Source of the DNA: Haplodiscus bocki
Taxonomy: Eukaryota
NCBI GenBank assembly: GCA_965655095.1
Contig: OZ296651.1
Coordinates: forward strand, 30,752,001 to 30,816,000
Length of the DNA: 64,000 nucleotides
Reading direction: 5' to 3'
The notes beneath the pieces were generated by a model. The model was not told the DNA's origin and searched no databases. It was given only the letters and a program-made list of their open reading frames with translations. Each line of letters starts with the position of its first letter. Positions within the stretch are counted from its first letter, which is position 1. The position numbers were made by a program, and so were the translations under genes. Positions 1 to 49,905 of the stretch are shown in pieces.

Positions 1-1072
1 AAAAATCAAAACGATCGATTGCTCTAAAAAGACAAGAAAACTGCCTATAAAATGTTTGGCAAGGTCAAGACATTGTGTATTTGGACAGAAGATTGAGAAA
101 AGCTAATGAACTGGGTACTTCTACTTTACATTGATACGGAAATCACCACAACAGAAGAGCATTCCAGAAGAAGAAGAACCGAAGAAATTTATCAACGCTA
201 AAAAAATCTAAATCAAAGGTTAACAGCTAGCCTGTGGCAAAAGTAAGGTAAAATTAAAACCTTGAAACTGTGATTAAACAGGCAAAACTTCTACAGCACT
301 GGAATCTATTCGAGGTCTAAAAGGAGACAACAACTTTGCAGGAACAAATATATCAGTTGCAAAATTGCCGTCAGCATCGTGTTACCTACTTTCTAAAACC
401 AAGACGAGATAAGGGTGCGCTAATACGGTTGAAGACTCAACTTCAAAAACTCTGCTTTTGGCAGATCTTGCTTTAAAGTAAGTTAACTTTATATGTTGTG
501 AATTTCGTTGTCAATAGTGGAAAGTTTGTGGTAGAAATTTCAGTCACTGAAGTCGGTTTTTTACCATGGCAAAATTACATTACATCCTAAACATCGATTA
601 TTTTTTCACTGAAAACACAATGACAATGACAAGAGTTCTACTTAGAATCATGAAATAAATTTTTATGGCAGTGAAGGCCATCCATGGCCTCATCATCACA
701 AAAAAAGACAAATGGCAATTTCACAACATTTTATCGGGACTCTTCCCAGAAACGATCTTTCCTCGGTTAAGGCATCGCAACAACTTTTATAATTGTTTTC
801 CCCAGAATACGATTTTTTATTTGACGTTTTTTTTTATTGCTGGTAACCCTCCCAGCTTGGGGGCTCTGAAAAGCATCGCTTGACTTTTGTTTTAGTAATA
901 AATGGTGGTATTGGAATTTATTAAGGTTTTTCAATAACGGAGCAAAGTCAAAGGCGTGATCACGAGTTCGTTTCAACAGTTTCAGCATAAATACTTCACC
1001 TTTGAGGAGTTTCAACACTACTTTAGAGATATCACTAACGTTTAAATCTTCCGAAGTAGTTTTCACAACACA

Positions 1073-1518
1073 TAAATTGGACGCTTAAAAAAAGTATTTA
1101 ACAAAATTAGTAAAACGTCAAAAAAACGATTGATTTACGACAAGCCATAAAATTAAAATTTTGTGACATGTCGTAAATCTCGGCTGTCAAGTTCCACAGG
1201 TTTCGCAGAGCTACTGTCGGGTTTTGACAATGGGTATAGTTTGACAAAACATCTATCTGTCGGGTTTCGACGGATGAGCAGAACAAAACCATAATCTCAC
1301 CAGATACGGAGAGTTTCACTTAACACTTTTTGCTGACAAGTGCTATAAAAGCTAAATGGGGAGTCGTCCACTTCCTTGAGTGCCCGAATTGTTTTTTTTC
1401 TGTCGCTACCTCTCTTCTAGAATTGAAAACCTTGTTCAATTCTCAACTTTGAAGTAAACTCTCAAGAAAGTCTACACAACCGTCTATTTTGTTTTCCCCA
1501 GTTCTGAGGAACACTATA
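1073..1518 (+). repeat. 5' LTR of Gypsy-1
   Basis: Colinear with 7106-7554 (shared TGTGACATG, AGCTACTGTCGG, GTCGGGT, GGAGTC, AGTTCTGAGGAAyACTATA). Ends in CTATA at 1518, followed by GTGGTG. Confidence 0.75.
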
Positions 1519-2379
1519 GTGGTGAAAAGGGCCAACAAAATCATCTTTCAAACAAATGTTATCTCTATAGCAATTCACTCTTTTCATCTGAAATCACTCA
1601 AGAGATTTCTTGGGCACCCGAAAATTTTCTTATCAACTTTGACAACTGCAAATAAAATCTGAAAACATCTTGGAGGCGCCAAATTGTCTCAGACCCAAAA
1701 GAACGAATAACTAGACATTGAAAACGTAAGTTTTGTTATATTCAGAATCTAAAAACAAATTTTTCACACTTTTGTAGTAGAAAATCTGTCTTCTACAGGA
1801 AAGCCTTCGATTCAAAGCTGTACATATCTGACATACGTAAAACCTGCTGAAAAAAGAGAAAATCACCAAAACCGGAGTTGCCGGGCAAAATCAAGCTAAA
1901 TTCTCCCTGTAATTAGCTAATAACTACAACTTCGATTTCTACTACTAAGGTTAGTTTGGTATCAATGTGAACGTCTTCCGAGCCACCAAAAAATTATAAA
2001 GATGACATTGGGGGAATTTCGACTTAAATTAGATTTATTTCATAAGATGCTCAGCGTCCTTGAGTAGACTTGTTTAAGATTAGTCGACCATTGAAAAACA
2101 AAAAACATCAAAACCAGAAGTAAATAAACAATTCTGGGATTCAACAAGGGGCCATACAAAGGAAAAAAGTGGGTTCCGCTGATTTCTTACAGTACTATTT
2201 TCGGTGTTTCGAGTTTTGAATTTACTGTAAAGACAAAAAAAGAAGTATAAAAAGAAAACAAAGTTTTGAAATAACGCAACACTAACAAGCAATACAAAAC
2301 AGTCCGAACTACCAACAGTTGTAAAACAAGTAGTTCGGCGTCGGTTTAGTAGAACTATAGCCACGGATGTTTCCAAGAG

Positions 2380-5300
2380 TTTTTTTACCGGAACCTGTCA
2401 CTGGCTCTAATGAAGTTGAAGGCTACTTAACGCACATTGAGCTTCTAGCGCATCTGCAAAAGTGGAGAAATGAAACGCACGAAGGAAATGAAGTCGGAAT
2501 AGATGAACGGCCGCACTGTTCCTGTTTTTGACTCCAGAAATCATCGATTGATTTTTACCGCACTTCTACAGTCGCGCAAAAATCGAGTTATGACGCAACA
2601 GTCCAAGCTTTCGGAAAGTAATATACTGAGAAACTAGTCGTTTTCTGGCGAAAATCTGCAAGAAGAATGCAACGTCCGGGGTTAATCTAATGGCCTTTTT
2701 GGGAGGTTTGCAGTGTTTGGCTATAGAAGCTAAAGAAATCAAATGAGATCTTGGACCCTTTGGTAGTGCGTGGATTCTTGGAGGGAATCCATAACAGTCA
2801 AATCAGAGGAGATTTGAGAAACGGCCTCGTAGACGCAGCGTAACAGCCAAAAAGGTTTTAGAAAAGACACTAAATCTTGAAACAGTTATCGCAATTGATG
2901 AGGAAAATAGAAAACCTGAAGTCCAAATTCTTCAGTTTGACAACACAGCGAGAAACTTTAACTCTGTGAAGAACCATGTTGAATTTTTGCCTTTCTCGTG
3001 GGATTCAAGCAGTGACAACCAAGGCTCGATCCGAGAAAGATAAAGCTTTGTAAGAGCTTCTCAGGAGAAAGTAACCAAAGCAGAGGAATTGGGGATAGGT
3101 TTAGATGTGATAGAGGGCGTACTGGTTACAAAAGAGGCAGATACTCAGCCCTAACTCCCAGATGATCATCTGAAAGCCGCGAACGGTCACAATCTCGAAT
3201 TTTCTGAATCTGATCGAGAAGTGGGTTTTCAAACTGTTAGCTGCCGGAAGTGCGTTGAACGTGGTCACTGAGCAAGAGAAGGCAAAAATTCTTAACAGTC
3301 TGGAAGTTGTCAACATTTTAGGAAAAGTTGGTTTTTTGTAAAATTGAAAAATGCTAATGTGGAGATGGCCAAACGTTCGCCCACCAAAAATAGGCCCTTG
3401 GTAAGAATGACAAAAGAAATGATGTCAACGGCAAGCGAGCATTGGAAGCAACGCTGCTGATAAAACTGATAAAAGGCAATTTGGCTGCTGCGTTGCTAGA
3501 TAGCGGCAGCAGTTTGTCAAAAGTTAGCTGGAAGTCCTTTCAATCACTGTGATTCAGTGGTGCATTGGAAGTCTTCAAGGGAAAAATTCTCACAGCGTAG
3601 AGTAACTGAAATCCCTTAGATCAAAAAGCAGAGCTCAAAGTTCAACTGGAAAAATTTGCAGCGGAGTTTCGGTTCGTTTTCTTTGTATTGACAGTAGACA
3701 TATTTCATTGTCTGTTGGTTTTGTATTTTCTGACCGAAATTGATTGCAAATTGTATGCCGTGGAAAAAAACTATTTTGCGGGAAGTCACCCCGAACGATA
3801 CCATTGAACTCAAGACTAACTAGTAGTGAGTCAACGTACCTAAAACTAGTTTTAAACGAAGCAGTTCCAACTAGGAGCGAAAGTTTACTGCGAGGCGAAT
3901 TAACAATTGAAGACGGTTCAAAAGTTCACAGCTACGGAGTAGGGGTAACTCCATTTTAACCATTCCATCAGTCAAATATGGGCAACACAATTCATAGGTA
4001 GAGATAACGAGGAAATTTGTTGAGTGCACTTTAAAAAGTTTCATAAATAAGATATTGCTACATACAAAAACTCCCGGGTCGGGATCTTGAAACTAATTGA
4101 GTTTGAATCAAACTTTTTCTCTACAAACAAAACCGACAAAACCGTCCACAAAGAAAAATTGAAATCCAAAAGCGTGTCAGAATTCGTGGCCAGCAGTTGT
4201 CTTTACCAGAACTGTATACAGTTAGCAACCTACGTCAGAAATTCAGAAAAGTCTTTTCGACAAGTCCGAATGACACAAGATTCGAAAATAAGATAGAGCA
4301 TCAAATCAAACTACAACCAGACGTGTAGCTTTTTCGTCGAGCCTATGGTAGCATGAGTTTTGACGAGGAAAGAGCAATGAAAACACTTTGAAAGGACAAT
4401 TCGGAGCGTATCTAAATACTCCAACATATTCCGACGGGGCTGCTCCAAGCATGTTGGTGCCCATAAAGAATGGGACATATCGTTCGGTTTCAGACTGCCG
4501 TGGACTTAATAGGCAAAAAGAAAAAAAACATGTTGGCCTCTTCCAAGAAATAAAGATGTGATCGATTCTTTAGGAGGAAATATGTTCTTCTCGAACTTTG
4601 ATTTAACGTCAGGTTATTTTGAAAAAGCCTCGAAAGAGGAGAACTACAACTTGACAGCTTTCATTACTCTAATGGGACTTTACAAGTAGAAACAACTACC
4701 AGTGGGACTGGCAACTGCACCTCTAGCATTCCAAAGCCTAATGGAATTGTTGCTCTGTGGTCTTTCTTACGAAGGTGCCCTGGTGTATTTGGATAACTTA
4801 ATTGTCTCCGGGAAAATTTTTGTGAAACATTTACTACGTTAAGAGTAGGTGTTTGTACACCTCGAGAAAAGCGGTCTGCAATAGGCTCCGAATGTGTTTT
4901 TTCCAGAATTGAATTCATTGTTAATTTCTGTGGGCTGTTGTTTTAGAAGAAGGAGTGGAAGTGGACCAACAGAAGTTGGAAACAGTAGAAAAAATGAAAT
5001 CACCAAGCAACTTGAAAGAAGTAAGAGCATGACTGGGTTTAGTTGGCTTCTGTAGAAAGAATACTCCAGTATTCGGCAAAGTTTCTGAACCTCCATACCA
5101 ACTACTGAAGAAGGAGAAGAAGTTTCTTTGGACAAAAGATTGCGAAGTTGACTTCCAAGAGTTGAAAAGGAAAATTCAATCAGCGCGCATCTTGGGCTAC
5201 CGAAACGACCACGACAGTTACACCTTAACCACAGATGCAACATTGTGGCATTGATGGCATTTTTTACTCTAAAGCAACAAGGAGTTGGTAGAAATAATGC

Positions 5301-5870
5301 ATTTGACGGCCAAACTCTGACCAAAAGTCGGAGGAACTACTCAGAAACAAAATGTGAGCCTTTCGCCATGGTGCACTTTACGAGTCAGTTCAAGACATAC
5401 CTACCGAGTCAGAAGTTTGTAAATGTCACGGACCATTGAGCATTTGTGTGGCTATATGGTTCAAAAGATACCGAAGGTATGAAAGCAAATTGGCTTGTAA
5501 AACTGGCATTTTAACTTCGAAATAAAACATAACGCAGGAAAAGACATACCTCATATCGATTGTCTGTCAGAAGGTAAAACCGGAAGGAGAGCGGGATAAT
5601 GAAGCTTGCGGCTTCTTTACCAAAAAGCGAGTCAGGATTCAAAAACGATACAACTAGTTCGTGGTAATTACTGCAAGACACAGACCAGAAAAGCATTGAA
5701 ATGTAGAAGAAACATGAAGAATACCTAGCTTAAGTCTTCTGTCGACTGAAAAACAAGCACAGACTTGAAGGCCGACAAATGACGGGGGATTCAAAGGATC
5801 TCGGGAAGTTATTGATTGTTTTTGGAAATTTATACAAAAATGATGTAATTCTCTACAGGAAGCGAGGAAT
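2380..5870 (+). pseudogene. gag-pol relic of Gypsy-1 (gag, CCHC knuckle, aspartic protease, RT, RNase H; integrase core apparently missing)
   Basis: FLPEPVTGSNEVEGYLTHIELLAHLQKW (gag), CRKCVERGH (~3243), LLDSGSS (~3493), FSNFDLTSGYF, LVYLDN (YxDD relic, 4786-4797), RRNYSETKCEPFAMVHF...VTDH (RNase H) and GKDIPHIDCLS. Many stops and frameshifts. Confidence 0.85.
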
Positions 5871-6234
5871 TGATAGAAGTGGACATTTCCAAAAGAAAGT
5901 AAAAATTGGGTTTCTCCATTGAGAAAAAACTTGTAGTAGGGAATAGGAACGACCTTTTCTAGTTGAAGGCAGGAAGTTTGGACGCCTTCAAAAACAAAGT
6001 TAGAAGTAAAAACAGGTTTCACGTTTTGTTTTTGATACAAAATTGGTCAAAATTGACTGTTCCGTTTCTTTTTACGGGGTTTTTGCTCGAAAATTTACAG
6101 GCAAGACACGTTTTTTTGTCGGTAACAAGTTTCAACCATAATGAACAAAAACTAGTGCAATTTTTAGGTTTTATGAACTCTCTGTTGTTTGAGTATACAT
6201 CCCAGACTTGGAGACACTGTTTACTACTTCCCTG

Positions 6235-6990
6235 ATGTCTTCGAAATCAAATCGGAGTTGCAGGCAGGTGTCTTCCGCGATGAAACTAAAGAGAGCAAAG
6301 GCCAAAAAGGTGCAGTTGTTGAGTCCCTTTATGCCTAATTGTTGGTTGAGAGGTCAAACAGAAAAAAGGCAGGTCTGTCAACAATCCGCGAACAAAGTGT
6401 TGCCTGACGAACGAGCGTAAGAGCCTAGTATATCAAAAAGAAGCCCTCCAACAGATTGTGTAGTCCTTTCAGAGGAAGTCAGAAGTGACCAAGGGTCAGC
6501 AGCTGCTTTAGAGAGACGCGGCTCATCAGAGCCAGCTTACACTCAAACAACATTTTAAAACATTCGTTAGTCTGACGGCAAAGTTGTAGGTGCAGGGTGA
6601 AATTACACTGCGGCGGCGGAAGAGATTGATCAGCAGGAGCGATCTCAAAGCTTGCTGGAACAGCTGAAAATGCAACAAGGCGCCGCTGCGACCCCACACA
6701 ATCATTTGATGACTCGCGACATTGCATATAAAATGGGCGAAGTTCTCACTTTGTACCAGCAGCTGCTGGTGCTTATTGACGCTCTCAAGGACTCAAATAC
6801 AAGGAAGTTCCGAAAGTTGAGCAGGTTTTGTCACCCAGAAAAACGTGGAACTCAGGAATTCTTTGTGCAGCTACACCATGCTCACTGACTTTTTACTGAC
6901 TCAGACGCCTGCAATGTTTTTGAAATCGAGGTTTGCGAAGCTGCAGGAGACGTTATGTGTTTGAAAGAAGTCTCAATTTCTGATCATTGT
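6235..6990 (+). pseudogene. Extra retroelement ORF with C-terminal DnaJ/J-domain (interrupted by stops)
   Basis: ORFs 6208 and 6652 are in the same frame. TLYQQLLVLIDALKDSNTRKFRKLSRFCHPEKRGTQEFFVQLHHAH*LFTDSDACNVF follows the J-domain pattern (YxxL...RKL...HPDK...F..L..AY..L.D). Confidence 0.7.
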
Positions 6991-7105
6991 TTTTGCCTGG
7001 GCGTTTGTTTGTTTTCCTCGCTGTCTCTTGCTTTGTTCTTGCTTTCTTATTTCGGTCTCTATTTTGTTGTGATGAGGCTGACTTCTCTCTTTCAGAAGGG
7101 AACAG

Positions 7106-7554
7106 TATAGGTTACCTGAAAAAGTTTTCCGGGAAAATAATTAAAATGTTAATAAAGACGAATAAATTACGATTGGCCTCAAAGTTTTAATCATGTGACA
7201 TGTTACATTTTTTGACTGTTGAGTTCAACAGCTTTCACAAAGCTACTGTCGGCTTGCGACAGTTGGTTTATTCTCACTGAACAGCTTTAGGTCGGGTCTC
7301 TGCGAATCAGCTGAACAATACCATGATCTCAGGATAATATCGAGTGTTTGCCTGACAGTAGTCGCTGAGAAGGTGTCTAGAGGCTAAGTGAGGAGTCAGC
7401 CATTTGCTTTGGTGCATGAATTTTCCAATTTTTTGTTTCAAACCGACCTCTTTTCTGGAGTTGAAAAACCCTATTATTTCCTCAACCTTGAAATGAACTC
7501 TCCAGGAAATCTCCGTAGACTTCCTCTTTTTCCCTAGTTCTGAGGAATACTATA
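7106..7554 (+). repeat. 3' LTR of Gypsy-1
   Basis: Begins TATAG right after the purine tract AGAAGGGAACAG (7094-7105) and ends CTATA, giving inverted TATAG...CTATA termini. Homologous to 1073-1518. Confidence 0.8.
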
Positions 7555-7870: not shown

Positions 7871-8610
7871 TCCTGAAAAGCAATTTTTTTATCTGTTTGA
7901 TAAATTACTCAACAATCCGGCTGCAAACGGCAATGTGATGTATAAATTAACTCATCCGATGACTATTTAGCAAGTTTATCACAACAAGCGCCTAATGGAC
8001 GAACGTTTGAATGCCCTGTAACAATATCGCGAAATCGTAAAAGATATCTCACCTCTGTTGCGCCTTGTTAGTCAATTTTATCGCCATTAACTTCACTCCG
8101 TCATTTCGATACACGTTGCGTTGGCCCGTTCTGCTCGTGGATACCAGAAATTCTTGCTTCTAGCGTTTTAAATGCAAGTTGTTCGACGCACTCATGTGTT
8201 CGTGCCCCCAAGCTTTCATGGAAATATGATACTGAAATATGGTTTTGTTCGTACGCGTTAGAAAGTATTCAAATTTTCAAAACACAGAGCGATTGGATCA
8301 AAAATTCGGCTTATTGCAACCTTGTTCCAAATTTTCGCTAGTTCGGACATTCGGGATGCTATCAACTCAAATGACTGCAGAAGCCTGAAAATGTAACATC
8401 ACAATCACACGAAAACTTGGGGGGACGCACTTCTGATGAAACTCAAGCCTTTAGATTGCTTTTGCTTCTTTCTAATCGACGAATGTAAGTTTTCCTACAT
8501 ATTCTGTTAATTTGGGGGTTTTTCCAAGTGCTTCAATGTTCGAGTCACGGTAGGGATTATTTTTGTTCACTTCCGGGCCTGAAACTATTAATCTGTTTTA
8601 TTTTTTGCAG

Positions 8611-9618
8611 ATGGATGTGTCATGCGCAATTCATAAACAGCCGTCCAAATATTTTTGCTGCTCTTGTAATTCAAGGTTGTGCGATGAATGTTGGGTTAGC
8701 AACCATTCAGAACATTCTGTTCAGCTCGTTGCAATTTGGCGCAAACAGAAGTTGAAAGAAATTGTTAATGAGAAGGCGTTAGATAATGCTGTTGAAAAAT
8801 TAGAAACCCGTTGGCAGAACTTGAAAGGCTTATCCTTCAATTTAAAACTGCTTTCTTCGGATATTGACAACTTGCTTCTGGAAACTGCAGATATGTTGCA
8901 GAAGGTTCAGAAACTGAAAACACCGGATAATTGCAACTATCAAGATTTAAATGATGGTCAATTTCAAAAACTTCTAACCTGTTTTGAAAATGACTCGTCC
9001 GGTACAACAAACGAACCTTATTCAGTTGTTGAAAGCAGATTATTGCAGTTGTCGAAATTCGCCATTGGTTTAAAAAACAGTTATTCCAAAGACAATGCCT
9101 CGACAGATACCAACAATGGGGCAAAAAATAGAACTAACGTTAAAAAGACAGTGACTAAAAGTGCTCAGAAAATTACTCAACCTCTCAGTTCTCAAATGCT
9201 GGAGCTATCTTGGGATTTGGATCATCTTCGCACGGTCAAAACCGGAACTTCTCGGCCGTCTGAATTTCAAATTAAAAATGGGGCAAAATGGCACATTTCT
9301 GTCAGTCGTAATATGAAAGAAGGATCGAAAAATCTTCTGATGTATAGTTTCACCCTCAATTTTCTTATTCTGAACGCTAAGGAGTTTGCTGATATTTTTG
9401 GGAAAAATTTCAGCATCTGTTTCAAATTAGTTAATTTGAAAAATAAAGAGAAGTCACACACGCGAAATGTAAAGTGGAAGGCGCCCAATATTTCCGAGAA
9501 CTTTTCTTACAGTGTAACGGCTGAAAATATGATCGAATCTGGGCAATATCTGAATCCCGAAAACAACTATCTCTACAATGAGAGGCATCAGATCAACTGT
9601 GTAGTTATGAAGCTCTAA
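8611..9618 (+). CDS. B-box zinc finger / coiled-coil / MATH(TRAF)-like protein (RING-less TRIM-like)
   Basis: Uninterrupted ORF. CAIHKQPSKYFCCSCNSRLCDECWVSNHSEHSV is a B-box type 2, followed by a heptad-rich helix. C-terminal LELSWDL...SEFQIKNGAKWHISV...FSICFKLVN resembles a MATH domain. The ATG at 8611 directly follows a splice acceptor (TTTTTTGCAG), with a candidate GTAAGT donor at 8485. Confidence 0.8.
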   Translation: MDVSCAIHKQPSKYFCCSCNSRLCDECWVSNHSEHSVQLVAIWRKQKLKEIVNEKALDNAVEKLETRWQNLKGLSFNLKLLSSDIDNLLLETADMLQKVQKLKTPDNCNYQDLNDGQFQKLLTCFENDSSGTTNEPYSVVESRLLQLSKFAIGLKNSYSKDNASTDTNNGAKNRTNVKKTVTKSAQKITQPLSSQMLELSWDLDHLRTVKTGTSRPSEFQIKNGAKWHISVSRNMKEGSKNLLMYSFTLNFLILNAKEFADIFGKNFSICFKLVNLKNKEKSHTRNVKWKAPNISENFSYSVTAENMIESGQYLNPENNYLYNERHQINCVVMKL

Positions 9619-22099: not shown

Positions 22100-25000
22100 T
22101 CCAAGAGATAGTTTTACCGGTAACAACTGCATGTAGACCAGCAATGCTGATTTTGCTTTCCTCAAAGCATCTCAGAAACAAGTCTAGTACTTCAGCCGCC
22201 GATCCTTGCCCGTTTCTGGCGTTGAAACTTGAGAAGAATTCGCATTCGCTGAGGATTTTCTCGAGATCTATACGTTCTTGCCTGTTTTTTTCCCGTTAGG
22301 TCACTGAAACCTGTCGCGAAGCACAGTACACCCCAAGGTCTAAGGTGGATCTGATTGGTCAAGTACGATTCGCTGCCTGAAATATGCTCACGTAGACGTC
22401 GCCGTAAGTCTGAAGTTTGCCCGACGTATGTACTTGTGACATCTTTAGTACTAACCAGAAGGTAAACAAATCCCACCTCACCTGGTGGTAATTCAATTTT
22501 TCGAGGTGTGAACGGCGAAAGGTTTGCTATGTGTAGTGAGCTTGATGGCTGATTGGAGGTAATATTGACGAGTCTTTCCGTGAATTCGTCCCACTGGGAG
22601 GACTGTTTGAGAAGTCTTCTTATTGCATCTAAAGTGACATGTTTATATCGCCCAAAAAGGTTATGTCACCCAAATTTTGAACTCGGCTTACCAGAACATA
22701 CAGCTGGTCTCTCTCCCAAAGGCATTATTCGCGTTCGAAACAATCAATTTTTGTGATAATTTTACCAATGGTTTCCCCCATAGCTTTATGTATAGTCATC
22801 GCCATGAAATTTTTCAACGGAAATTGAATATGTCTAATAGATGAACCATGGAAATTATTCACAAATCCAGATTGTTTATACAGTGAGACGTCGAACCAAC
22901 CATTATCATAAAACATGTACATTCCTCGGCTATTTTTCGGAGGCAACTTCCGGACACCAGGCGGGGCTACAATAACATCAATTTTTTTGTGGCCGTCGAA
23001 ATTTTTGAAAACACACATTTGACCTTGCGAAACGTTGAGTGCCGGCATGTTTACGGTTAACCTCAGCAAAGCATTTTCGTAGCAGTAAAGTTTTTCCGGT
23101 TCGAAACAAACTCGATTGAGAGCGTTTTTTATATAAGCAGGAGCAGCGTTCCAATTACTTGAGCAATTCACTTTCACTTCGTCTACACTTGGTATTTTCG
23201 TAACGACTTGGCCAGATGTTGATACTCTTTCAATTTGGGCATGAATTGCAGTCCATTCTGCCGCACGAGTTCCAGAAACTCGTACAGCATCAATTGGACT
23301 GCTATCAAAATCACAGAAATGGGAATTTTTGTCGAAAGCTTTCAAATTTTGTCCGATTTCGGACTCAAGAATTTTTCGGTACAGACAGCATTTCAAAAAA
23401 CTGACGACCAACGAAATTAGTCATCCTAACGCATTTTTTCCAGGCAAACATTCTCACGCTACTTAAAATGATAGGAGATGTCCAAATTAGACGACCTTGA
23501 GGAAGCGGAAGTTGTTTGGGATCGCCTGTTCCGACAATGAGAATCCCACCAAACGGTGCAAAACTTTCACTCGCTTTGAAGTATATAATCGATAACAGCG
23601 AATTTTTCAGCTGAAACCATACCAATCTCCTCGAAATACAATATGTCGATTCGTTTGATTAGGAATTGCTTGAAAATATCATTTTTCAGTTTTTGCATTC
23701 TCTTTTGCACAATAGTATTGACGTTTAAGGTACTACTAACCGGCAAACAGAATAGGTCTTGTATATGCATGGCTGCGAAAAGCATTGCCCGCTCACTACT
23801 CAATGATGTTACCAAGACGTTCAAACCCTGGCAAAAAGCATAAAGAAGAGCGTTAGTAATAAAGAAAGTTTTTCCAGAGCCAGACATTGCAACGACGAAT
23901 CGATGTTTGAAAGAATTGGCGGTAAAATTTCTGAATTCGTCAATAGTTTTCAAGGGCAAAATAACGAGCATTTGCTTTTCGTTGAAAACAACATTTGGCG
24001 ACTCAATAGGGCTACATTGAAGAGGCGTGTCCAAGTTGCAATCAAGAATCTGATTAACTGGAGGTTTTTCTGTGTCGAATACGAGTTCATGTATTTGTGT
24101 TGTAACATTTGATAATTTTTGTCTCACGGACTCCAAAAGTTCTTTCGTGCACTCTTCCTGCAAAGCAGCATAAACAATCGTGGGTGTTTCGAGAATGTCG
24201 TTATTGTTGCTCAAAGTGCTCAAAGCAACTTTAGCGTCAACGATCTGACGATCCTGAGAAATGTGTGATCCGGGAATATACACCACGCGTTTCAAAACGA
24301 AACGTTTTAAATTTGCATTTGTTTCTGAATCTGTAATTAAGTTAGCGTCTGAGACTAAACCTGCCTTCTCAAAAGCAGGGGGAAGGGTTCCACCCTGAAA
24401 AAAAGTCGAACTCTGTTTCAAACCTTCCGAACTGAAGCAGCAAACTAATCAGAAAGTTCGGAATGTGTCTAGGCAGTGTGTTAGGAAAAACTACAACCAA
24501 AGGCTTCGCTTCTGAAGTCCGTTCATCAACTAAATGGGAACAATAACCACTTCGGAATACATTTTGGTAATGGGTAGCAAACTGAGCGTATTTTTTACGA
24601 TTGGGACTTTGGTAACTTTCGGAGAGAAGTTCGAGAAATTTTTCAGTGCCGCCCGGTCTTAAGCGAATCAAATTTCCTTGTGGCGTCAATGCAAGAACTT
24701 GTCTCCAGATTCTCACTCAAAGGATTCTGCAATTTTGGAACTCTTATCTTTTTGAATGAGAAATATCGGAAATATAGTTCTGAGTCATTAACGAAATGTA
24801 ACTCAGGAGGTCTGAGCTCGAATAACGACACTTTGTCGATTGTTAGACTCGAATGGATATATTCCCGCAGAGTTTTGTCTTGGTTTTCACTGCACAATCG
24901 GTTTTGTGGTAAGTGTATAGTTTTTCTAAATCTGACGAAATTGTAGTCTTGATCGTTTTGACCGAACATATCAATGAAGCGGTTGTACTTTGTCCTGCGT

Positions 25001-28000
25001 TTGAAGCAACTTCGATTTTCAAGAGGCAAGGTATTCACGTGAACACAAGTTTACGCCGGAAAGACATATTTCAAGTCCAACATGCTCCAAATACATTCAG
25101 TTGACGACAAAATGCGGCAAACTTCAGAAGTTGAAGTGTTTTTTTTCTTTTTCAGCTGCAATTTTCGCTCCCGCAATTTTTATCTTTCTTTTTCTTAACG
25201 CTAACTGGGACAGACGCACTAGACTCACCATGAATCTTTACTGTAGCGTGTTCTTCCACGCCAGCTGCGTTTTTCGCTAAATATGTAGCAGACATTATGG
25301 CGTCACAAACAATTCATGCTACCTTGATTTAACGAGTAAGTTTTTGTCACAACCGGAGAGAATGTTTCACCGAAGTCCGCTGCGTAATAATAGTAACCCG
25401 CCTTCAACTCTTGCGCTACTTCACAATGACCTTCCAACAGATGAGCTAAATGCAAATTCCGTAAAATTTCCCACACATCCTCACAATATGGTCTGCTAAT
25501 CAACTTGAAAAATGTTTCAGATCACGACTCGTACACTTTGAACCTACAAATTTTCTGGCCACTGTTATCACATTTTTTGCGACATCTGTAGTTCCCGCGC
25601 TCGCACGAGTGCGTTAATGTTTCCGCTAAACTGTGCAAATCGTCGACATTCTCCTCTGAGTTTAACAATGTATTTGTGGGGTCAGCCAATTCGATTTTCA
25701 GTTCATGCAACAGTTGGCGAAAAGATCCGACAATTTTGTTTTTGATAATGGGATTGTTCTTGTCCTCGTATGTCCAAATACTTACATGAAGGTGAGGAGC
25801 ATTGCCTATTGATGTTTGAAATTCAAAACGCGGAAAAATGATTTTGACAGTTCCCAGAGGTTTATCTTTGGATATTTCCAAATACTTAATGAAAAAAGCA
25901 GCCGCCCTTCCCCACAAATGCACATATAAAGGCATGAATCCCTCTTTCAGGTTCCTTCTCTCAGCATCACTCATATTAACACTATTCCGCTCGATTAGTT
26001 TAAACAACGGTGCCTTGCCGAACATTCTGGACTGGTTTAACGTAAACGTCAGAAAAAAGGTTGGCTCCTCCGACCGTATAGCCGAAGCCAATTCATTTAC
26101 GATTTTACGACTGTCTTCTTCATTCATCCGTTCAATGGCCTGAGAACTTTTGAAATTCAAAGACCGGAGTTCCTGTGAACCTCTGTTCAGAACAAAGCGA
26201 GAATCAAAATTTTGAGCTTGGAAGTTGAGGAAACAGTCAAAAATAAAACTGAATAACGCGCGGGTCCGAAGATTTCAATAACGACAAATTTTTCAAGCGA
26301 CTACGAATGTGAGAAATTATGTCAGCAAAAATGAAGCGCTTCGTCACTGACGCTGGCGCGAATAAGGGTGACGGAATCGCGCTACAAATGGAATTTTTGA
26401 CAGTGAGGTAAGAAATGGAAGGTAAAAGCACTGCCTCGGGTAACGTTAACGGAACACTTTCGCCGGGACATTTGGCAGTGAAAGATGTGAGGAAACGCCA
26501 TTCATTTTTCCTGAAGTTTGTCGGGTTTCTTGGCCTATTAAGTAAGGAACATACTGCATTCAAAATGACGTGACTTCCCACTGTTTTAAGGTCTTCTGCT
26601 GAATGAATCTGTACTGCTTCGGCGCCAGCATCCGTTTCGGAAACGTCGACAATTTCAATTACCCCGGCGTCCGTGGGAACATCAGTTTCACTAGTGGAAG
26701 CTTCAACTTCACTGTCATCTCCCCCGGAATTGTCACCTATTTCATCGCTTTGCCTTTTCTGTCTCAGGACCTCATTTTTCCCTACATGTGGTGTAACAGT
26801 ACTTTTTCCATCTATTTCACTGAAGTGCTTCTTACAAAGGGCACTTTCACACCCCTCAAATGGACATCGCCATGCTGATTGCAGGTACAGAAGTCATCAA
26901 ACTGGCAAAAAAGATTTTTTAGGAAAATCACAAGTTAACCGCAGTGTATGAGCATCACAAAACACCATATCTTGGCCAAAAATACTGAAAACATCCTGCG
27001 ATCTTTCTTTCTCATTTAAACGAGACTCAAGCCTTTCATAAACGCAAATTTTCCAGTTGTTTTTAGGAAGAAAAGAACAATAAAATTGATGAGTAACTTT
27101 TTGAGATTTACCAACAGTATTAATGTTCCACCAATCCTCGCAAACTTTGTAACGAAAGTTTTCGAAGTGGAATCGTCACTTACTATGTACACCAGTTTGA
27201 ATGTCCTATCATTGGTTTCCATACAGTCATTTGGAGGGAGAAGAGAACAATTTCTGGAGCAGCAACGGATCACGCGACAAAGTCGTGCTCGTTAGCAATG
27301 TCTATATTGAGGTCAACAGGTTGTTGCTTATTTTGGACTTCTACACACTTCACATAAGGTAATCGATGAAGCGTCTGGAAAACCGTCGACTCTTCTAAGT
27401 CGCGTTCGTTTTTACGCAATGCGTCATTGAAACTCTGTTTGAACGATTTTCATTTTTTGCCAGAAACATTCACGAATTTTCGATGAGAAACGCTGTTTTC
27501 TTAGATGTCCCTGTATTATGTTACTCATAAAAAGAACCGAATTAGCTGTCAAATCAAAGATAGTTTTTGATTTTTCTGAACCTACTACGTAAGTTGTTGG
27601 TGGGGCCCCCCCAAAGATTTATCCATCACTTTTACACAAGGAAAATGTAGTTTATTTAAAGAGCACACCTCGTTGTTCGATGGCTTACTAAAAGAACCGG
27701 ACTCCTCCTCAGGTTCTTGAAATTGACAATCAGAGTGTTCTGTTGGTTCTTCATCAATGCTGTCATGTAATATCTCATTCTCGGAGCTTGCAACGTCCCC
27801 CTGGACTTCATCAACTTCGTCAATAATAGTCAGAGGCTCAACCGTCTGAAGGTTTCTGACGTAGCGTAAAAAACCAATTGTTTCAAGGGGCAAGAAGCTA
27901 GTGTGATCTTCGAAAACAACAGCTTTCTCAATCCAGTCGAAGTTTTTATTTTTCAAATTAGAATCACCTACGGCCTGAGATAGGTGACCATTATTCACAG

Positions 28001-29341
28001 TTTTTTTAAAACCAATTCATTATCTTTTCTCGTCTGAAGGTAGAATGATTCGTGTAGGACATTTTCATCGCTCACTTTATCAAACGAACGGCTTTCTGAT
28101 AAGAAACAGGTGTTTAAACCGGCGAAACAAGATTGCAGCTTTACCATTTTTTACGACGCAGTCGAGAAGTTTTCGCGAAAAGGTTCCATTGTCCTTGTGC
28201 TCAAAATCGCCGACGCGAAACCATCGGGCAAGGATTGAAATTTCTACCGGCCGGGTGCCTAAGTAAATGCAAGTATTGTTGGTCAATTTTGTTGTTGTGA
28301 TCCCTACAAGTTAACAAAAACACGCCATTGACATTAAATAGAAGTGCTGGCTTTTTTGATGGAGCTAAAGGGTCTTCTGGGAAATTGATTTCCGTTAATT
28401 CGTAGTCACAACGGATTCCTCGTAAATAAACCGTAAATAAATTGAATTGCGAAAATGTTGGAATGATTTTGCCTCAGTAATGTGTAAAATCGATCTGTCC
28501 ACACTCATCAATAAATTCCTCACATACAACGGGGCATTCAACACAGGAAAAAAATTCTTCGTTGACACAGTTCACCATCTTCGCAACAGGCATTTTTTGT
28601 CTGAAAGCGTTGAATTTTCTTAGCCTCTCTGATACATCAGTGAAAACTGGAACACTTACCAAGTCCATCCTACTCCAAAAAACCAAATTTTCACACGCTG
28701 TTTTGTTTAGCCACCTCGACCTCAACGGAAAGGGAATGTTTTGCCAAAAGTTACAAGTGATATCTTCATCGGTAAGCATTATCCAGAAAACTGCTGGCCC
28801 AGCAAATTTCAAAGTGGCAATTTTGTTGTACGGAGGGTTAGATGGGTTCTCAAATGCGCTACACAATTGACAGAGAGTGATAATGCTGGATGTTTTGCTG
28901 GGGCCAAATTTTTTGTCAATTGACAATAGTGGTTCTTGCTACAGTGTCAAACTGTAATGGGAAACTCTCAGTTGAAATACGATGACAACTGTAACAGGTC
29001 CTCTTATTGGGAATAATTAAAGACGCTACTTCTTCGGGGGGCGACAAAATGGAGACTTCGAATACGCCTGGGTCCGAGATGCGATCCTCGTTAGCATCAC
29101 ACCTTGAGCATTAGCCGGTAGCAGACAACAGGCGGTCACATGGTTGACATTTCTCACGACGTGGTCGTTTGCGACCCATGATATCAGCAGAAACTGAAAA
29201 CTCCGCGCATGCATGCCGAACACATAGTTATTGGATTGTCACTGTTGCAAATTTGTAGCCCACTTTTTTAGTTGACCTTCCGGAACCACAGGAGAGAGAT
29301 TAAACTTTAATGTAGTGTTTTTTTAACCGATAAGAGGCCAT
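22100..29341 (-). pseudogene. Rep (HUH)-PIF1 helicase-GIY-YIG polyprotein, frameshifted
   Basis: Rep motifs PTFFLTFTLN, RFEFQTSIGNAPHLHVSIW and YLAKN (YxxKY relic, ~25280). Helicase motifs AMSGSGKT, LYFEEIGMVS, PFGGILIVGTGDPKQLP, QFPLKNFMAMTIHKAMG and LYVLVSRV. C-terminal GFVYLLVS...TYVGQTSDLRRRLREH...RPWG. Confidence 0.88.
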
Positions 29342-35915: not shown

Positions 35916-36349
35916 TTTATTTTATGAAGTACCTGATGCTTCTGATATTCAATTTTTTGGCCATCTTTAAAAATGTGTTGAGGAGTAGTTGGCATAATGT
36001 TAGAAGTCGTGAATCACAATCGAAAGGTTGTGTGTCCGATCCATCCTCTATCCTTGTTATGTAACTCGAGTAACTTAGTTTGCTTCAGGCTAGTAGCTAT
36101 TGAAAGTAAGAGTTGTCAATCATCAGTGGCTCAAAAAGAGGCGACGGATCGAGATCAATAGGTCAGCAGAAGCTCATGAAATTGGGATCTATCCGATACG
36201 ACGAGGACAACAAAATGATATGTTTCAGAAGATAAGATATTTGAAAACCAAACCAAGTGATCGTTATTTATTGTTCAGTCACTTATCTGAAGGTATTTTG
36301 GATTGCTTTTCTATAATTTAACCCTTTTAGTTACCTGCTAAATTTTCAG

Positions 36350-36688
36350 GTGTGGTTTCCGGAGTCTAATCGATTGGAAACTACGTATTTGTTGGATGAA
36401 AGCGACGAAGAAAACGACGAACCAGATGAAATTCATATTCTTTACTGTTACCCTCCCTTTTCCTATCAGCAGCAGTCTCTCTATTCGGGCTCCGCCTCTT
36501 CCTTCTCTAATTGTAATTCCTCTCCCACGAAAAGCAGAAGCAGTCGCAAGTCTCCTTGGGAAATGTTTGCAAGGGACAGACTAAGATTCCAACGAAAAAT
36601 CGCTCAGAGATACAAAGATCAGCTATCGGCTATTCTCGACACAGAACATCGTCTCAAAATCTACAATTCGCGTTTTAAAGAAACATAA
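36350..36688 (+). CDS. PPP1R15: PPP1R15-like gene, terminal exon (PP1/eIF2alpha-binding domain)
   Basis: Acceptor AATTTTCAG|GTG TGG TTT (phase 0). RKSPWEMFARDRLRFQRKI...LSAILDTEHR matches the PPP1R15/ICP34.5 signature RxGxWExxARDRxRFxRRI. Splicing gives R-T|V-W-F, an RVxF motif. Confidence 0.88.
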   Translation: MWFPESNRLETTYLLDESDEENDEPDEIHILYCYPPFSYQQQSLYSGSASSFSNCNSSPTKSRSSRKSPWEMFARDRLRFQRKIAQRYKDQLSAILDTEHRLKIYNSRFKET

Positions 36689-40182: not shown

Positions 40183-43100
40183 ATGTTTCCCTGTTGTAAA
40201 TGTGATAAATTGTTGAGCTCAAAACGTGCCTTAAATGATCACAAGCGAAAGAAGCACAATTTGAAGCGATTGATCTGGCCAAAGTTTTCAAATGTGGTCA
40301 TTGTGAGGTTTCTTTCACAAAATCTTGCAATTTATTGCGCCATCTAAGGAACCAACAAAATTCATCGGGCAACTATCGATGTTTCTCTTTGGAACCTCTC
40401 AACATTGACTCAACACCAAGAACAGTATCATTGCGATGTATCTCTTGGTAGACCAAATATCAACGTCTCTATTTGCTCGATTTCACAACTGAAGCCGTTA
40501 ATTCTAAATTCCAAATTCATCGACTCAAGCTTGAGGACTCTGATGGTTTGCAACCGTTCAACTACATTATTTCTCAGAAAGATACAATCATTGCATTTGT
40601 GAATTCTTTATTGAGCGTGACCCAAACGTTAAACTCGGTCTAAGCATTGCAGTGAAACTGGAAAAGCCTTTGGAGAGCGAGGTAGTAGAAGCTTTTTTCA
40701 ATTCGGCCATGTCTCGAGTTTCTTCTCAGCTCACCGATGTCGAGTATTTGCAGCATGTGGATGCCTTGATGACACAGTTGATTGTATTCGCCACACGTGG
40801 TTCAGGATGGGTGGTGGGAACATTGGCACTGTTGGAAATCAAAACAGTCTCCTGTAGTAAAGTTACTGGCGGCTCATATTTAGAAACGCCACCAATTCTC
40901 AAACCACTGAATCGCTCGATTTTGAATGTTGTGAATAAACGTGATAACTTCTGCTTCTTGTATTGCGTTGCAGCTGCTCTAATCTCTTTCATCGGAAGAG
41001 CTAATAGTCCAAAGACCCGTTAGAAAAACATCGAGCGGCTGTCTTTCAACTCAAAGCTAATGCCGATGCCTCTGTCCGCCATTCCTTCTTCGGAATCGTT
41101 GCTCAATCAGTGTTTATCAGATGGAGAACTCCAGGATGGTGTCCGTGTATCACAGTAAGAATCGAAGAGGAAGACACAATGATCTTCTTGGCCTAATGAA
41201 TAACCAAAACAGTCATTATTGCCTGATTGAAAATTTCTCGAATCTTATTGATTTCCTAACTAGTTCCAGAATCAAGCGCGACCTTGAACGAAAGTCGCGC
41301 TTTTGCCGAAACTGCTTTCAACCGATAACTAAAAAGAACTTCAAGAAACACGTTTCCTTTTGCGAAAGTAACGCACCACTTGAGACTCGAATGCCTCTTG
41401 AATCACCAACAATTGAGTTCGTCAATTGGGAGAAAACACAAAAGTGTCCCTTTGCTGTTTATGCTGACCTTGAGGCAATCAATGTGGCTTCAGCAGAATT
41501 TCCTCAAACTAAATGTCGGACAAGGGAAATTGAAAGGCAGTATGCAGCCAGCTTTGGAGCAGTCCTGGTTGATTCTGGAAGTTAATTAAACTTTGCTTAT
41601 ATCTCCGTGACGTTTTGGAAAAAATCTTATCTTTACCACTACTGTTGACCTTATTCAAATTTTAACTTGGTTATGTTCAGTGTGATTTCGTTTCAGCGAG
41701 TGGAATTGTTAAACAAGGTTTCTACCGGGGATTGGACTGTATTGCAAAGTTGTTGGATATGTTGCGTGATTGGTTATTTTGGTGCTACGGTGAAAAACAG
41801 ATGTTCAGACGTTTAATGGTTTTCGGGGCAGCAGCGAAAGCGGATGTTGAACGTGGCAAATGTTTCGTGCTGCTTATGTGGCATGGATGTGGAATAAACA
41901 GTTCGAGTGATTCATCACTGTCATCTTTCGGGAACAATTTTTGGCGTTGCCCATTCAAAATGCAATCTGAGAGCCAGAACGACGAATTTCTAACCAGTTA
42001 TCGAGATACGATGCTCAGCATATTTTGAATCACCTGAATTTAAAGGTGGGTTAAGAACTGGCTGCAATTGCCAAAACTGATGAAACATACATTTCATTCA
42101 GCACCAATATACCTGTGGACACTTACAGAAAGCAATCGGGGCAACTGGTTAAATTTTATCAATCTCTTCGCTTCCTCGACAGCTATCAATTTGTTTCTCA
42201 AAGTCTAGAGAATCTTGCAAAGACACTGGAAAAAAGATGACTTCTTTTTACTCAAGCAATTCTTTCACAACGTTCCGGACCAAATTTTTCTCAAGCTCAC
42301 TCAGAATGGTTTTTTTCCTTACAGTTACCTCGACAGTTTCGAAAAGTTCTAAGAGTCTTTTCCAAATTATGGTGATGCTTGGAGAAATAGTCTCTCTGGT
42401 AAAATCGATATCACTTATTCTGACTATCAACATGCAGTCAGTCTTTGCAATGATTTTGGTTGCCAAAACCTGGGAGACTATCACGACGTTTATCTAAAAA
42501 CTAATGTGCTTCTTGTAGCTGATATCTTTGAAAAGTTTAGAAGTGTTTGCCTAAATGTTCACAGGCTGGATCCCTCTCATTTTTATTCGGCTCCGAATTT
42601 GAGCTGGGAATCTATGCTCATTTCCATAAGGGTTAAGTTGGGACTGTTGCAAGACATTGACATGCTATTATTTTTCGAGCGTGGCATTCGCGGTGGAATT
42701 AATGGAGTTGGAGAACTACGTCATTTCACAGCTGACAATGCTCATCTCGACAATCTTGATACGAGACGAAAAACAACGTTCGGCGCTTTTTACGATGTAA
42801 CATCACTTTACGCCGGCACAATGCAAAAAATGATGCCTTTAGATAACTACAGGTGGAACACAGAAATTACCATCGAGCAAATTTTGCAAGCTTCTGAAAA
42901 TTCAAGCGTTGGGTACTTTGTAGAAGTTGATCTGAAGTATCCCCAATATCTACACGATCTGCACAATGGACTGCCTTTAGCACCTGAAAATTTGATCATA
43001 CGGTCCCCATGGCTTTCACCTTTTGCCAAGTCTTTTGGAATTAAACCCAACAAAACGCCTAAACTGGTCGAGACGCTATTGGACAAGAAAAATTATGTCT

Positions 43101-44726
43101 GTCATTGCGAAAATTTGAAGTTTTATGTGAAACATGGTTCGTTCACCGATAAAATACATCGCGTGTTCGAGTTTGAGCAAAGCAAGGGGTTAGGTGTGTA
43201 CATAGGAATAAACACTGTTATGCGCAAACAAGCTAAGAATGACTTTGAAAAGAACTTTTACAAGTTGATGAGCAACGCATGTTTTGGGAAAACCATGGAA
43301 AACTTGAGAAAGTGATCGGTTATAAAGTTTGTGTCCAATCATCAGCAAGCAAAAAATTTGCTTAGAGAGCAACGTTCAAATCCTTTCCAAATTTTAGGCA
43401 GGATTTGGTTTCTGTGTCTTTCAGAAATTCGTATATGGTATGGACAAAGCCTACTCCTGTGGGAGCTGCCATTCTAGACTTGTCCAAATTGTCCTTGTAC
43501 AAGTTTCATTACGAGGAAAGATCCCTCGTTATTGGTCAGGTCAATTGAAAATAGCCTATAAAGACACCGACTCTCTGTTATTCTTGATTGAAACCCCCTG
43601 ATCTCTACAAAGATATGACGTCTTTCAAACACTTGCTTGATCTTTCAGATTACCCACAAGATCACTTTTTGCGCTATCCAACAAATAAGAAAGTTCCGCT
43701 AGGTGTGACAGATGAATTACAGGGCAAAGTTTTACGCGAAATTGTTTGTTTACGATCCAAACTCTATAGCATCGGGTACGTTGGTGGGTTGAAGCAGAGC
43801 GCCAGGGGCGTACAAAAGTCAGTTAAAATAATTTTACATCACGATTTGTTTAGACACTACCCATTTTTTTAGACACTGCCTATTCTCAAAAGACAAAGTT
43901 GTCCGAACAATGACACAGTTGGGTTCACACTGTCATCAATTTGTAGTCAATGAGATTGATAAAGTCGCAGTCAGCTCATTTGACGACAAACGCTTCCTTC
44001 TGGATAATGGTGTTTCTTCACCTGCTTATGGACACTAAAATTTGGAAGTACCTTCAGTGACACTACAGACCGACAATCAGGTCGCTGTTTCAAAATGTTT
44101 GAAATTCTTTGGTTTCTCCAACCACAGTCTTTGGGAAACTCTTCACACTTTTTCTTCTGTTTAGATTACTGAATTGGTTACGATTCTTCGTCAGTCTATA
44201 GTGACTCGACCTTTTTCACCAGTAGTTCCTCCTCTTCCATTACTGATCTGGACTCTGAGTTGTCGAATTACAGAGAGACAAGGGAACCTCGTGACTTTCT
44301 GCATGATATGCTGAAAACATTACCTTCTTCTTGTAAGTTGTGGCAAAATCAAGAATTTTCTTTGCGTAAAGTCAAACTTCTACGGCAGTAACATTTTCGT
44401 TGGTCTTTTATTACGTATGATAAGTGTTTGCGTTCTTCTTTTTTATCTGTTCGTTCAAATCAACGCTTTCCATTTTAGCATCGTACACAGATCCTGGTTT
44501 CAACCAGCCTCCTATATCGGATAGCGAACTATCCGACGTTGTTGACTGGGATCATCTATCTTCAATGGCTGACGATAATGATGACTCTTCTAGTCCAGGC
44601 CTAATATGTCCCTTCATTGACTGGGAAGCCGAAGAAAAAGACCCAGTAGATGTGCCAGCTTCCAATAGAGACAGGAAGCGAGCCTGCTTTAGCGAAGGCA
44701 GTGACACAGATGAAACCGTGGCCTAA
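40183..44726 (+). pseudogene. Protein-primed family B DNA polymerase with N-terminal C2H2 fingers; three predicted introns
   Basis: GSGW, NKRDNFCFLYC, VYADLEA (Exo I), HHCHLSG...AHSKCNL (endonuclease VII-like insert), FLDSYQF, GFFPYSY, RGIRGG, YDVTSLY (motif A), KLMSNACFGKTMEN (motif B), YKDTDS (motif C) and FDDKRF...AYGH. Scattered stops and frameshifts. Confidence 0.92.
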
Positions 44727-44799
44727 AAACTAGTAAACTTTGAACGTCTTCGCAACACAGTCTTGCCTTAAACTTTAAATTCATCAAAAATCGACAATA

Positions 44800-45362
44800 T
44801 TACCAGGTTCGATATTTAAATTGACGATATTTAACATGTTCGTTAAAGAAGCGTACTATATCAATTTCAGTGGTTTGCATTAAAGTGGGATTTTTTGCAG
44901 TTTTTTAGACGTTGAAGGGTTTCTTGAAGAAATAGTGTACTAGCTACAAGCAGTACAGACCACACCGGTTAGAATGAAGCTTTTGCAAAGGTAACTTGAT
45001 CGCTTGGAATCCTCCACATTTTCCGTATAACTTCCAGAATCTGCTGTAGAATTGATCGTAATAGCATAGAGGCCTGCCGAGGCAATCCCAAACAAAGATT
45101 CCAACGTGATCACCATTGTCGATTGCACGCAGTAAAATCTAATGCTCACCGCTTTTATTTGACGGCCAGGAGTTTATTAGTTGAAATTTTCTCAGTTGTG
45201 AAATTTTCAAGCTTGGTTCTTTTTTTTGTTGGGGCTGCTGGTTTTCTGTTTTTCCACGCAGTCTATCTTGCATTTAGGGAAATTGTCCGACCAGACGCCA
45301 CCAAAAATGTGCAATGTACTAGAACACTTTGTTGCATTTTTTGCAACTGTGGAATTATTCAT
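44800..45362 (-). pseudogene. Adenain-like cysteine protease (not captured by the ORF track)
   Basis: Manual translation gives IFGGVWSDNFP ... QLINSWPSNKSGEH*ILL ... FVWDCLG ... LQKLHSNRCGLYCL, i.e. the His/Asp/Gln/Cys layout of adenovirus-type proteases. Confidence 0.8.
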
Positions 45363-46725
45363 CGATTAATGTATTTTTGGAGATGTTTCGGGCAGAATCG
45401 ATAAACACTTGACTGAACCGCTCGCCAATTAGAAATATTTCAATTGCATATTCAAGAGGGTTGGAAAAATACAATTTCAATGTTAGACTCGATCCAGTGA
45501 GTTCGGGAAACAAGATTAAGCTGCTGCTAGCCTCTTCCGTTGATGTGAGATCGAAAACGAGGAAAAAATGATTGTCCTCGAAATCCTCCAATGTTATTCC
45601 GTTTCCATTTTTGTTAAACCCAAGAGCCGTAAATGCATTGTACTAAAGCTTAACATTGTTGCTCGTGTCTCTTGGTGTCCCAGCCAAGGGCACCCCGTTC
45701 CCGCGCTGCTTTTCTACACGCTGTAATTTGTTATGAAAAAGGCGAATAGTTTAAAGCTGTAGTTCGAAACAGTGAATGTTGACCATACACAAAGTTAACC
45801 TTCTGATTGGCTCCGTTCCAAACACGTTGTCTTTCACGAAACAATTTTGACCTGCTTGTATGATGAAACTTTTTTTCAAATTTTCAATGTAGGGGTAAGT
45901 AGCTGAACTCTTTACGAGAGCTTTTTCAATCGACAATTTCACACTGTCCGTAACCACTACTTTCCTTACAAAAAGAGAAGCTCTCTCAATAATTGCTTGC
46001 ACTTTACCATCAAGCGCCTTAGCTTCGTCATCGGTTCCCTACATAAAAAGCATCGTGTTATTGGGAGAACGGAAAAGTAGTAAATGAAGTGTGACGCCGG
46101 GCACCAAAAGTTCTTCGCAGTCAAAAAAGTCAATATGTAATGCTCCATAGAGCTCGGTCGTGCATTGTTTTTGGCGGTCAAAATCAGCGTAGAATTTATT
46201 GAACTGTTGATTTTGCTCACTTGTTTTTGCCAGGTAATCATTTCCCTGAAAGCTTGTCCAAGTTTGCTTTCCGTCGGTGTTAGCTGTAAGTTCGGTTTCG
46301 ATGAACGCCGCATGAAAATAACAGTTGTTGCTGTGTGAAATGAGTTTCCCGTTCAAATACAATTGAGCGTGAGAGAACAATGTGTAAAGCGTGTTGTTCG
46401 AAAAAACTATTGGATGCTCATTGACTTTGGCGTGGGTCTTCCCGTCCTCCGTTTAGACGCCAACTTTTACACTCAACAGAATACGATTCAAGTCAATCAA
46501 GTTTTTTGCTTCAGCTGTTACAAAACAGTCCAACTGGGGGCCTCTAATTCCTACATGTGGGAAAACCTCTTGATCGTAAGAACCTTCGTAATTGATTAAC
46601 ACGTTGGGCTTCTCAAAAAAATCTAGAGCGCTCTGAGTGACCGGGCTCGCAATTTCCATTTCACTTGTTGCTGCTGTTGGTAGGGCCAGATTGCTTGTTA
46701 TCGTCGTGGTTTTACTATGGAGCAA
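45355..46725 (-). pseudogene. Polinton major capsid protein (double jelly-roll), frameshifted
   Basis: SALDFF, IDLNRILL, FSHAQLYLNGKLIS, LYGALHIDFF...LLVPGV.L.L...RS, IERASLFVRKV, FGTEPIRRLTLCMV and FFLVFDLT...GSSLTLKLYF are typical Maverick MCP motifs. Confidence 0.85.
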
Positions 46726-47983: not shown

Positions 47984-48073
47984 GTCTTGGGAAGATGAAA
48001 GTGTCTGATTTTGGCAGATTGTTGATGTTACGCGGTTTGGTAATTTCAGTCACGTGCGCTCTTATATTCTTGT

Positions 48074-49843: not shown

Positions 49844-49905
49844 GTATTGGTTGATTTTTCAGAAAGCTGTACTCGTCGTTAGTTATTAGAATAAACTCTT
49901 TAAGG

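Follow-up and report, generated by a model that had tools for sequence, protein, structure and literature searches.

The window, by which we mean the whole 64,000-nucleotide (64-kb) stretch of DNA analysed, lies within the 1.5-Gb genome that was searched and contains the remains of a member of an envelope-carrying Ty3/gypsy family. This copy is dead and has an internal deletion, and all its parts are on the + strand. Its 5' LTR (1057..1518) has an approximate start, with sister copies matching from about 1084, and ends at 1518; directly after it comes a primer-binding-site-like tract starting TGGTG (1520..1531), a start also seen after the LTRs of a younger lineage described below. A gag relic is assigned by position to 2340..3300, where sister copies align at about 70% and the Pfam scan of the window copy gave no match. 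The pol relic begins with a translated motif, LLDSGSS (3493..3513), which has no Pfam match and which we take to be that of an aspartic protease; it continues with a reverse transcriptase (4552..4891; RVT_1, E = 1.4e-8) and an RNase H spread across two frames (5129..5509; RT_RNaseH, E = 1.5e-11; RT_RNaseH_2, E = 6.5e-5). No integrase was detected in the window copy by the Pfam scan. A deletion junction lies at 5865..5885; its flanks are separated by about 4.2-4.6 kb in sister copies of full length, according to which the missing 4.3 kb or so held the integrase, a gB-type env and the first of two accessory genes that combine a coil with a J-domain (J1).

The second such gene, J2, which in the family frame has 270 codons, survives as a relic at 6177..6980. 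A map of shared stops and a comparison copy by copy show that the relic contains six stops and shifts frame near 6400, 6590 and 6970. Its J-domain (6751..6909) has HPE at 6832-6840 and a TGA stop at 6886; with stops read as X it matches Pfam DnaJ at E = 0.0022 and 18.5 bits, which for this copy alone is below the curated cut-off of 27.8 bits. A polypurine tract, recognized in the sequence at 7094..7102, precedes the 3' LTR (7106..7554), which was delimited by LTR alignment and has the ends TATAG ... CTATA; a similar purine tract ahead of TATA was found in two of the seven sister copies tested with a strict pattern (L031 and L038). The Ty3/gypsy assignment is based on the reverse transcriptase, RNase H, LTRs and primer-binding-site- and polypurine-like tracts of the window copy, and on the integrase that follows RNase H in sister copies. 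The copy is a fossil: its LTRs are 69% identical over 425 columns (1103-1518 against 7134-7554), its frame has changed, it carries six stops, and HPE replaces HPD.

A sequence-only reading had located HPEKRG at position 6832 and had placed the J-domain between the pol relic and the purine tract, inside the LTR pair, and both placements were borne out. The J-domain pattern that it saw from 6748 to about 6925 is also matched by the DnaJ profile when the frame from the window is searched, with the qualifications on score and stop given above. The single frame of about 250 codons that it described was not upheld: because the window copy shifts frame near 6400 and 6590, most of 6235-6590 had been read off-frame.

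Elsewhere in the window, a 354-codon intronless ORF 1 kb past the 3' LTR (8554-9618, +) has a coil and a Cys/His start that we take to be B-box-like, and a short ORF (36317-36688, +) presumably resembles the PP1-binding end of GADD34-like proteins. Two further relics we assume to be Helitron-like, with helicase-like and GIY-YIG-like frames (22192-28016, -), and Polinton/adintovirus-like, with pPolB-like, ATPase-like and capsid-like frames (40544-52444).

Family structure and decay of the window lineage

Searching the genome with the window J frame gave 131 matches from the 129 candidates scored out of 233, where matches are not to be equated with copies. An LTR match adjoins J2 at every one of the 29 non-self loci returned, of which 27 are distinct. 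Among the 20 of the 27 distinct loci for which 10-kb regions were examined, J2 is present in every one, and 15 of them also have J1, some 1 kb further upstream. DnaJ matches at E <= 0.01 were obtained for 16 of 17 aligned J2 copies (best E = 3.4e-11, 43.5 bits) and for 10 of 12 J1 rows (best 40.5 bits), and the profile of this old lineage matches solved J-domains at E = 3.5e-5. The window J-domain match is not a chance one, and it belongs to an element family rather than to a one-off insertion. The proposal that a J-domain gene is carried lineage-wide between pol and the 3' LTR is thus supported by the sister copies.

Three frames after pol, of 675, 240 and 270 codons, are delimited by stops that most of the 23 copies aligned have in common; the only shared stop within J1 is a CGA/TGA site. 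Stop codons make up 1.2-2.3% of codons in the family frames against 5.6-6.9% off-frame. J1 and J2 are paralogous from end to end (P = 98.7 in hhalign, with 95.8 for the N-terminal parts and 0.3 for a reversed control), and the genes are tandemly duplicated within the element. The family layout is LTR-gag-pol-env(gB)-J1-J2-LTR. The J genes therefore come after env and not instead of it, and the earlier idea of a J ORF standing in for env is not supported. The env ORF of 675 codons has hydrophobic peaks at columns 19 (signal-like) and 594 (transmembrane-like) and a basic site at 295; three of eight env pieces match the gB-class family PF24664 (best E = 2.5e-7). The old env profile matched none of the gB envs of young families in this genome (best E = 0.037), and the env had no sequence match in the PDB. 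As the profile missed other gB envs, the gB call for the old env rests on PF24664 and on layout.

Every copy of the window lineage that we examined is old and decayed. LTR pairs are 68-84% identical in 10 of 14 sister copies tested, the other four giving no match, and terminal branches measure about 0.16 changes per site (0.22 for the window copy). The dN/dS among old copies, 0.64-0.67 against 0.70-1.15 in off-frame controls, appears to reflect mostly decay after insertion. No intact close kin was found in searches with the integrase, J1 and J2 or in a protein collection: with the integrase, 17 matches belonged to the family (16 interrupted by stops, the other being the query's own place) before identity dropped to 36-39%, those with J1 and J2 gave no cluster of near-identical copies, and the five matches in the protein collection, all 52-100% identical, included none.

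Of 30 old copies, 17 have D and 8 have E as the third residue of the HPx motif, and HPD is the commonest triplet in both genes (8/23 in J2, 5/17 in J1). On the tree, the E copies need seven changes, no fewer than in shuffles (363/500). HPE as a subfamily trait was rejected, the E copies being unclustered on a star-like tree. Because these copies do not cluster, HPE is most likely recurrent decay of HPD, as the sequence-only reading had suggested; given that the HPE rate is high for the genome and the tree star-like, it may also derive from an early polymorphism.

A young J-bearing lineage and its J-less relatives

A genome-wide DnaJ search, in which 150 of 666 candidates were scored, returned blocks of equal-scoring matches in open frames of 320-430 codons. 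Most of the 20 matches that were fetched sit in gypsy elements; the exceptions are a host-like TM2+J gene (L093) and a tandem array (L096:5976-9499), in which repeats about 2.7 kb apart each have a 267-codon coil+J frame. In the pol of this young lineage a Macro domain lies after RNase H and ahead of integrase (L086:2-2770, E = 2.5e-5; L088:3-2945, E = 7.4e-6; L081:1-2763, E = 0.009); pol is followed by an env of 780-860 codons and then by the J ORF. The env is F-type, with Baculo_F matched in one of four envs scanned (E = 1.8e-7) and the four mutually 47-60% identical. LTR pairs are 94-100% identical in 10 of 10 cases, and the lineage has recently been active. Target duplications of 4 bases are visible in three of ten young copies, and two young copies (L083, L089) lack most of env and still have an open J gene. 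Both lineages have TATA-type inverted LTR ends rather than TG...CA (window 7106-7554; L086, L088, L092).

DnaJ is matched above the cut-off in five young families (33-53 bits), whose J ORFs are 24-54% identical to each other, and 35 of 40 young loci retain HPD. Three pairs were informative for dN/dS of the J ORF and gave 0.048, 0.245 and 0.405; the members of another pair were too similar, and pairs between families were saturated. The young J gene is intact, and these ratios place it under purifying selection. A splice-acceptor-like TTTCAG stands at the start of the J ORF, in the same phase, in five of five young families; a sixth locus tested (L092) has no search motif at that place and does show the TTTCAG site. 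No splice donor in phase with an upstream ATG was found in five leaders.

In the whole-protein model of the young lineage (pLDDT 68), a disordered linker joins a beta domain to a helix of 105 residues, after which comes a J-domain. The protein is predicted to start with a small KOW/Tudor-like barrel, which a proline-rich linker connects to a coil of about 100 residues; the J-domain and a tail rich in Cys follow. The J-domain model has the four-helix J fold, aligning with the J-domain of ERdj5 at a VIA Z of 9.0 (rmsd 1.9 over 71 residues). Modelled alone, the N-terminal domain forms a barrel of the SH3-like type (pLDDT 83), which matches Spt5 KOW best (Z 7.7, rmsd 2.9 over 60 residues) and Tudor domains at Z 6.5-6.9; an SH3-like fold class is likely, KOW and Tudor being nearly tied and all matches under Z 8. 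The barrel and J-fold models are of the young lineage only. The layout of class A and B proteins (N-terminal J-domain, G/F-rich region, C-terminal client domain) was not found, the J-domain being C-terminal after the coil, and we take the element J proteins to be class C-like. A complex prediction for one old J2 domain with a host Hsp70 and ATP scored 0.00, which says nothing on binding because the Hsp70 has an ER-retention-like end and no alignments were supplied.

On a reverse transcriptase tree of sequences from this genome only, an abundant sub-branch is sister to the J-bearing families and carries env and a short barrel ORF. In 16 of its 17 loci this ORF has neither coil nor HPD; the remaining locus gave no match. 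Its LTR pairs are 97.4-100% identical in five of five cases, the LTRs being 1.3-1.6 kb long, and the short barrel ORF (for example L168:2217-2624 and L169:1838-2287) has pN of 0.02-0.09 against pS of 0.2-0.3 in most of the pairs printed, as under purifying selection. The tail of the short ORF can be aligned, though weakly, with the end of the J genes (E = 6e-4), and J has likely been lost in this sub-branch. Since an abundant and active sub-branch does without it, the J-domain is accessory and not required in cis.

Other env families in the genome have no J and carry different extra genes. One multi-copy family (L142:2560-3785, also L136-L150) has a 721-codon gB-type env, a 159-codon ORF and a 256-codon ORF with a coil and a TRAF-like MATH domain (Pfam E = 1e-17), possibly an immune-signalling decoy; another gB-env family (L124:3618-4703, also L121-L129) has after env a 362-codon ORF with a coil and no Pfam family.

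Origin and possible role of the J genes

In J-domain trees, old J1 and J2 form one group (support 95/87) and the young J-domains another (98/87). The element J-domains fall together opposite 13 host-like J-domains, with weak support (60/80; 85), and among these 13 no host J groups with them as a possible donor. The N-termini of old and young proteins align at E of about 0.03, which is not significant, and the two envs have no similarity; the integrases are about 30% identical and the LTR ends are similar. Further barrel-coil-J proteins came from a profile search against 1.84 billion representatives. Two of these were compared with this genome and match it at only 41-45%, so that the gene family must be present in other assemblies. 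No genomic context for them was found in collections of viral contigs or metagenome contigs, and an Atlas search gave only scores under 0.9.

That a fragment of a host DNAJ gene was inserted once, or is a functionless passenger, could be argued from the broken state of the window copy and its score under the Pfam cut-off. Against this are dozens of copies at a fixed position, the tandem duplication, dN/dS down to 0.05 and the absence of any host J that groups with the element J-domains among the 13 host-like ones. We consider this explanation extremely improbable: the single insertion that the sequence-only reading had named as its own counter-case is ruled out by the LTR-adjacent copies, the J1/J2 paralogy and dN/dS, and family members do have the ORF. 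Its other counter-case, a frame that DnaJ fails to match, did not come about either.

HPD-dependent stimulation of Hsc70/Hsp70 is established J-domain biology. As purifying selection has kept the J gene of the young family intact, the elements likely turn the host chaperone to their own use, and by analogy we think it probable, if well short of certain, that the coil+J proteins encoded after env act as T-antigen-like adaptors that aim host Hsp70 at a chosen client. The J protein would be made from a spliced mRNA; its barrel would bind the client and its coil would dimerise; the J-domain, through HPD, would stimulate cytosolic Hsc70, and the client would be remodelled or dismantled, as with polyomavirus T antigen. 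Points against this reading are that no splice donor was found, that helix II is less basic in young J-domains than in host ones, that every window-lineage copy examined is decayed, and that the barrel is modelled for the young lineage, with whose N-termini those of the old one align so poorly.

The client could instead be the element's own RNP or capsid, with Hsp70 brought in for assembly, transport, egress or uncoating. The J gene comes after env in both lineages, and the best matches of the barrel are KOW domains, which bind RNA and RNP machines. A baculovirus precedent is Ac51, which has a J-domain and a coil and promotes nucleocapsid egress (PMC12172431). This reading is opposed by the very abundant sub-branch that has env, LTR pairs of high identity and a barrel ORF without coil or HPD, and by the other env families without J; supply of J in trans from sister families is possible. 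We therefore regard a role in the element's own particle as unlikely. A particle-assembly role had been among the first suggestions for the window gene, and what is weakened is its need in cis, as an active young sub-branch has env and neither coil nor J.

An active branch can do without J, and the other extra domains of these elements, such as Macro in Pol and the coil+MATH protein encoded after env in a different family, are of host-modulating types. On this context we favour as client a host complex for restriction or silencing over the element's own particle. If Hsp70 is indeed recruited, the chance that its client is a host complex restricting the element may be put at somewhat under even.

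Alternatively, the J protein might be a decoy that ties up Hsc70, or that competes with host J proteins loading small-RNA silencing complexes, with no productive client cycle. RISC loading depends on Hsc70 and Hsp90. Helix II is weakly basic in several families: the mean number of K and R in the 13 residues before HPx is 4.4 in host proteins, 3.7 in old J2 and 2.5 in the young lineage, with a single K or R in three of 18 young rows. HPE in 8 of 30 old copies also exceeds the mean C-to-A rate of 5.4%, and 20% is reached by only 8 of 207 C columns. The barrel, however, is conserved and under purifying selection even after loss of J, which fits a targeting module and disfavours a decoy, and HPD is kept across very divergent families. 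We consider a decoy quite improbable, and a T-antigen-like adaptor remains the reading that we prefer.

The most far-reaching form of the adaptor reading supposes that the envelope-carrying gypsy elements of this animal group resemble complex retroviruses, that an ancient barrel-coil-J gene predates the split between gB-env and F-env elements and that its T-antigen-like product sets Hsc70 on an RNA-silencing or restriction complex, beside a macrodomain and a TRAF-like decoy in neighbouring families. Taken as a whole this is a tentative proposal, and we would sooner doubt than assume it.

Relation to known systems

Errantiviruses in the wide sense share the gag-pol-env arrangement between LTRs, and a survey by Chary and Hayashi (PMC13524379) distinguishes two env classes, gB-type and F-type, to which the window lineage (PF24664) and the young lineage (Baculo_F) respectively correspond. 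Unlike those elements, the ones described here have one or two coil+J genes added after env; 'dnaj' occurs 0 times in the main text and seven supplements of that survey. Papers on the GDSL and DEDDy ORF3s of bdelloids (PMC5408684) and the aORFs of plants (PMC7264820) describe captured or additional genes that LTR retrotransposons carry downstream of pol, ahead of the 3' LTR, and that are typically expressed from spliced messages; neither paper mentions DnaJ in the portions accessible; the element J genes, in contrast, come on top of env. In the same way, no retroelement J genes are described in the portions available of PMC8616336, 10.1101/2022.06.16.496473 and PMC5794183.

Virus-encoded J-domains are known from DNA viruses, and T antigen has an Rb-binding motif beside its J-domain. 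The likeness to polyomavirus large and small T antigen is that of a virus-encoded J-domain joined to a client-binding part, which sets Hsp70 on a host complex (PMC7356129). The only homology found lies in the J-domain; T antigen is from a DNA virus and has its J-domain at the N-terminus, whereas here an LTR retroelement encodes a J-domain at the C-terminus, after barrel and coil. Ac51/BJDP (PMC12172431) is likewise a viral accessory protein of about 300 residues with a J-domain and a coiled coil, in an order (N-terminal J, middle RRM, C-terminal coil) that is reversed in the barrel-coil-J proteins. The Foldseek match to it is at rank 45 (E = 0.05, 91 columns, TM 0.20), for which the modelled J-domain alone can account, and we treat Ac51/BJDP as an analogue.

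Our literature search, the scope of which lay outside subscription journals and repeat catalogues and included sources available in part, found no report of a J-domain in an LTR retroelement, and env-carrying gypsy elements with accessory genes of the Hsp70 co-chaperone type are new among those that we found reported. The J gene occurs with two env classes, duplicated in one and probably lost in a branch of the other, a pattern that shows accessory genes of invertebrate retroelements evolving like those of complex retroviruses. Families with and without J in one genome offer a ready natural comparison, and the client of the barrel would reveal either a host anti-retroelement defence or a chaperone-dependent step of the element cycle. 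If the product is indeed a T-antigen-like machine that acts on Hsc70, its gene would be the first example of a retroelement gene that hijacks a chaperone.
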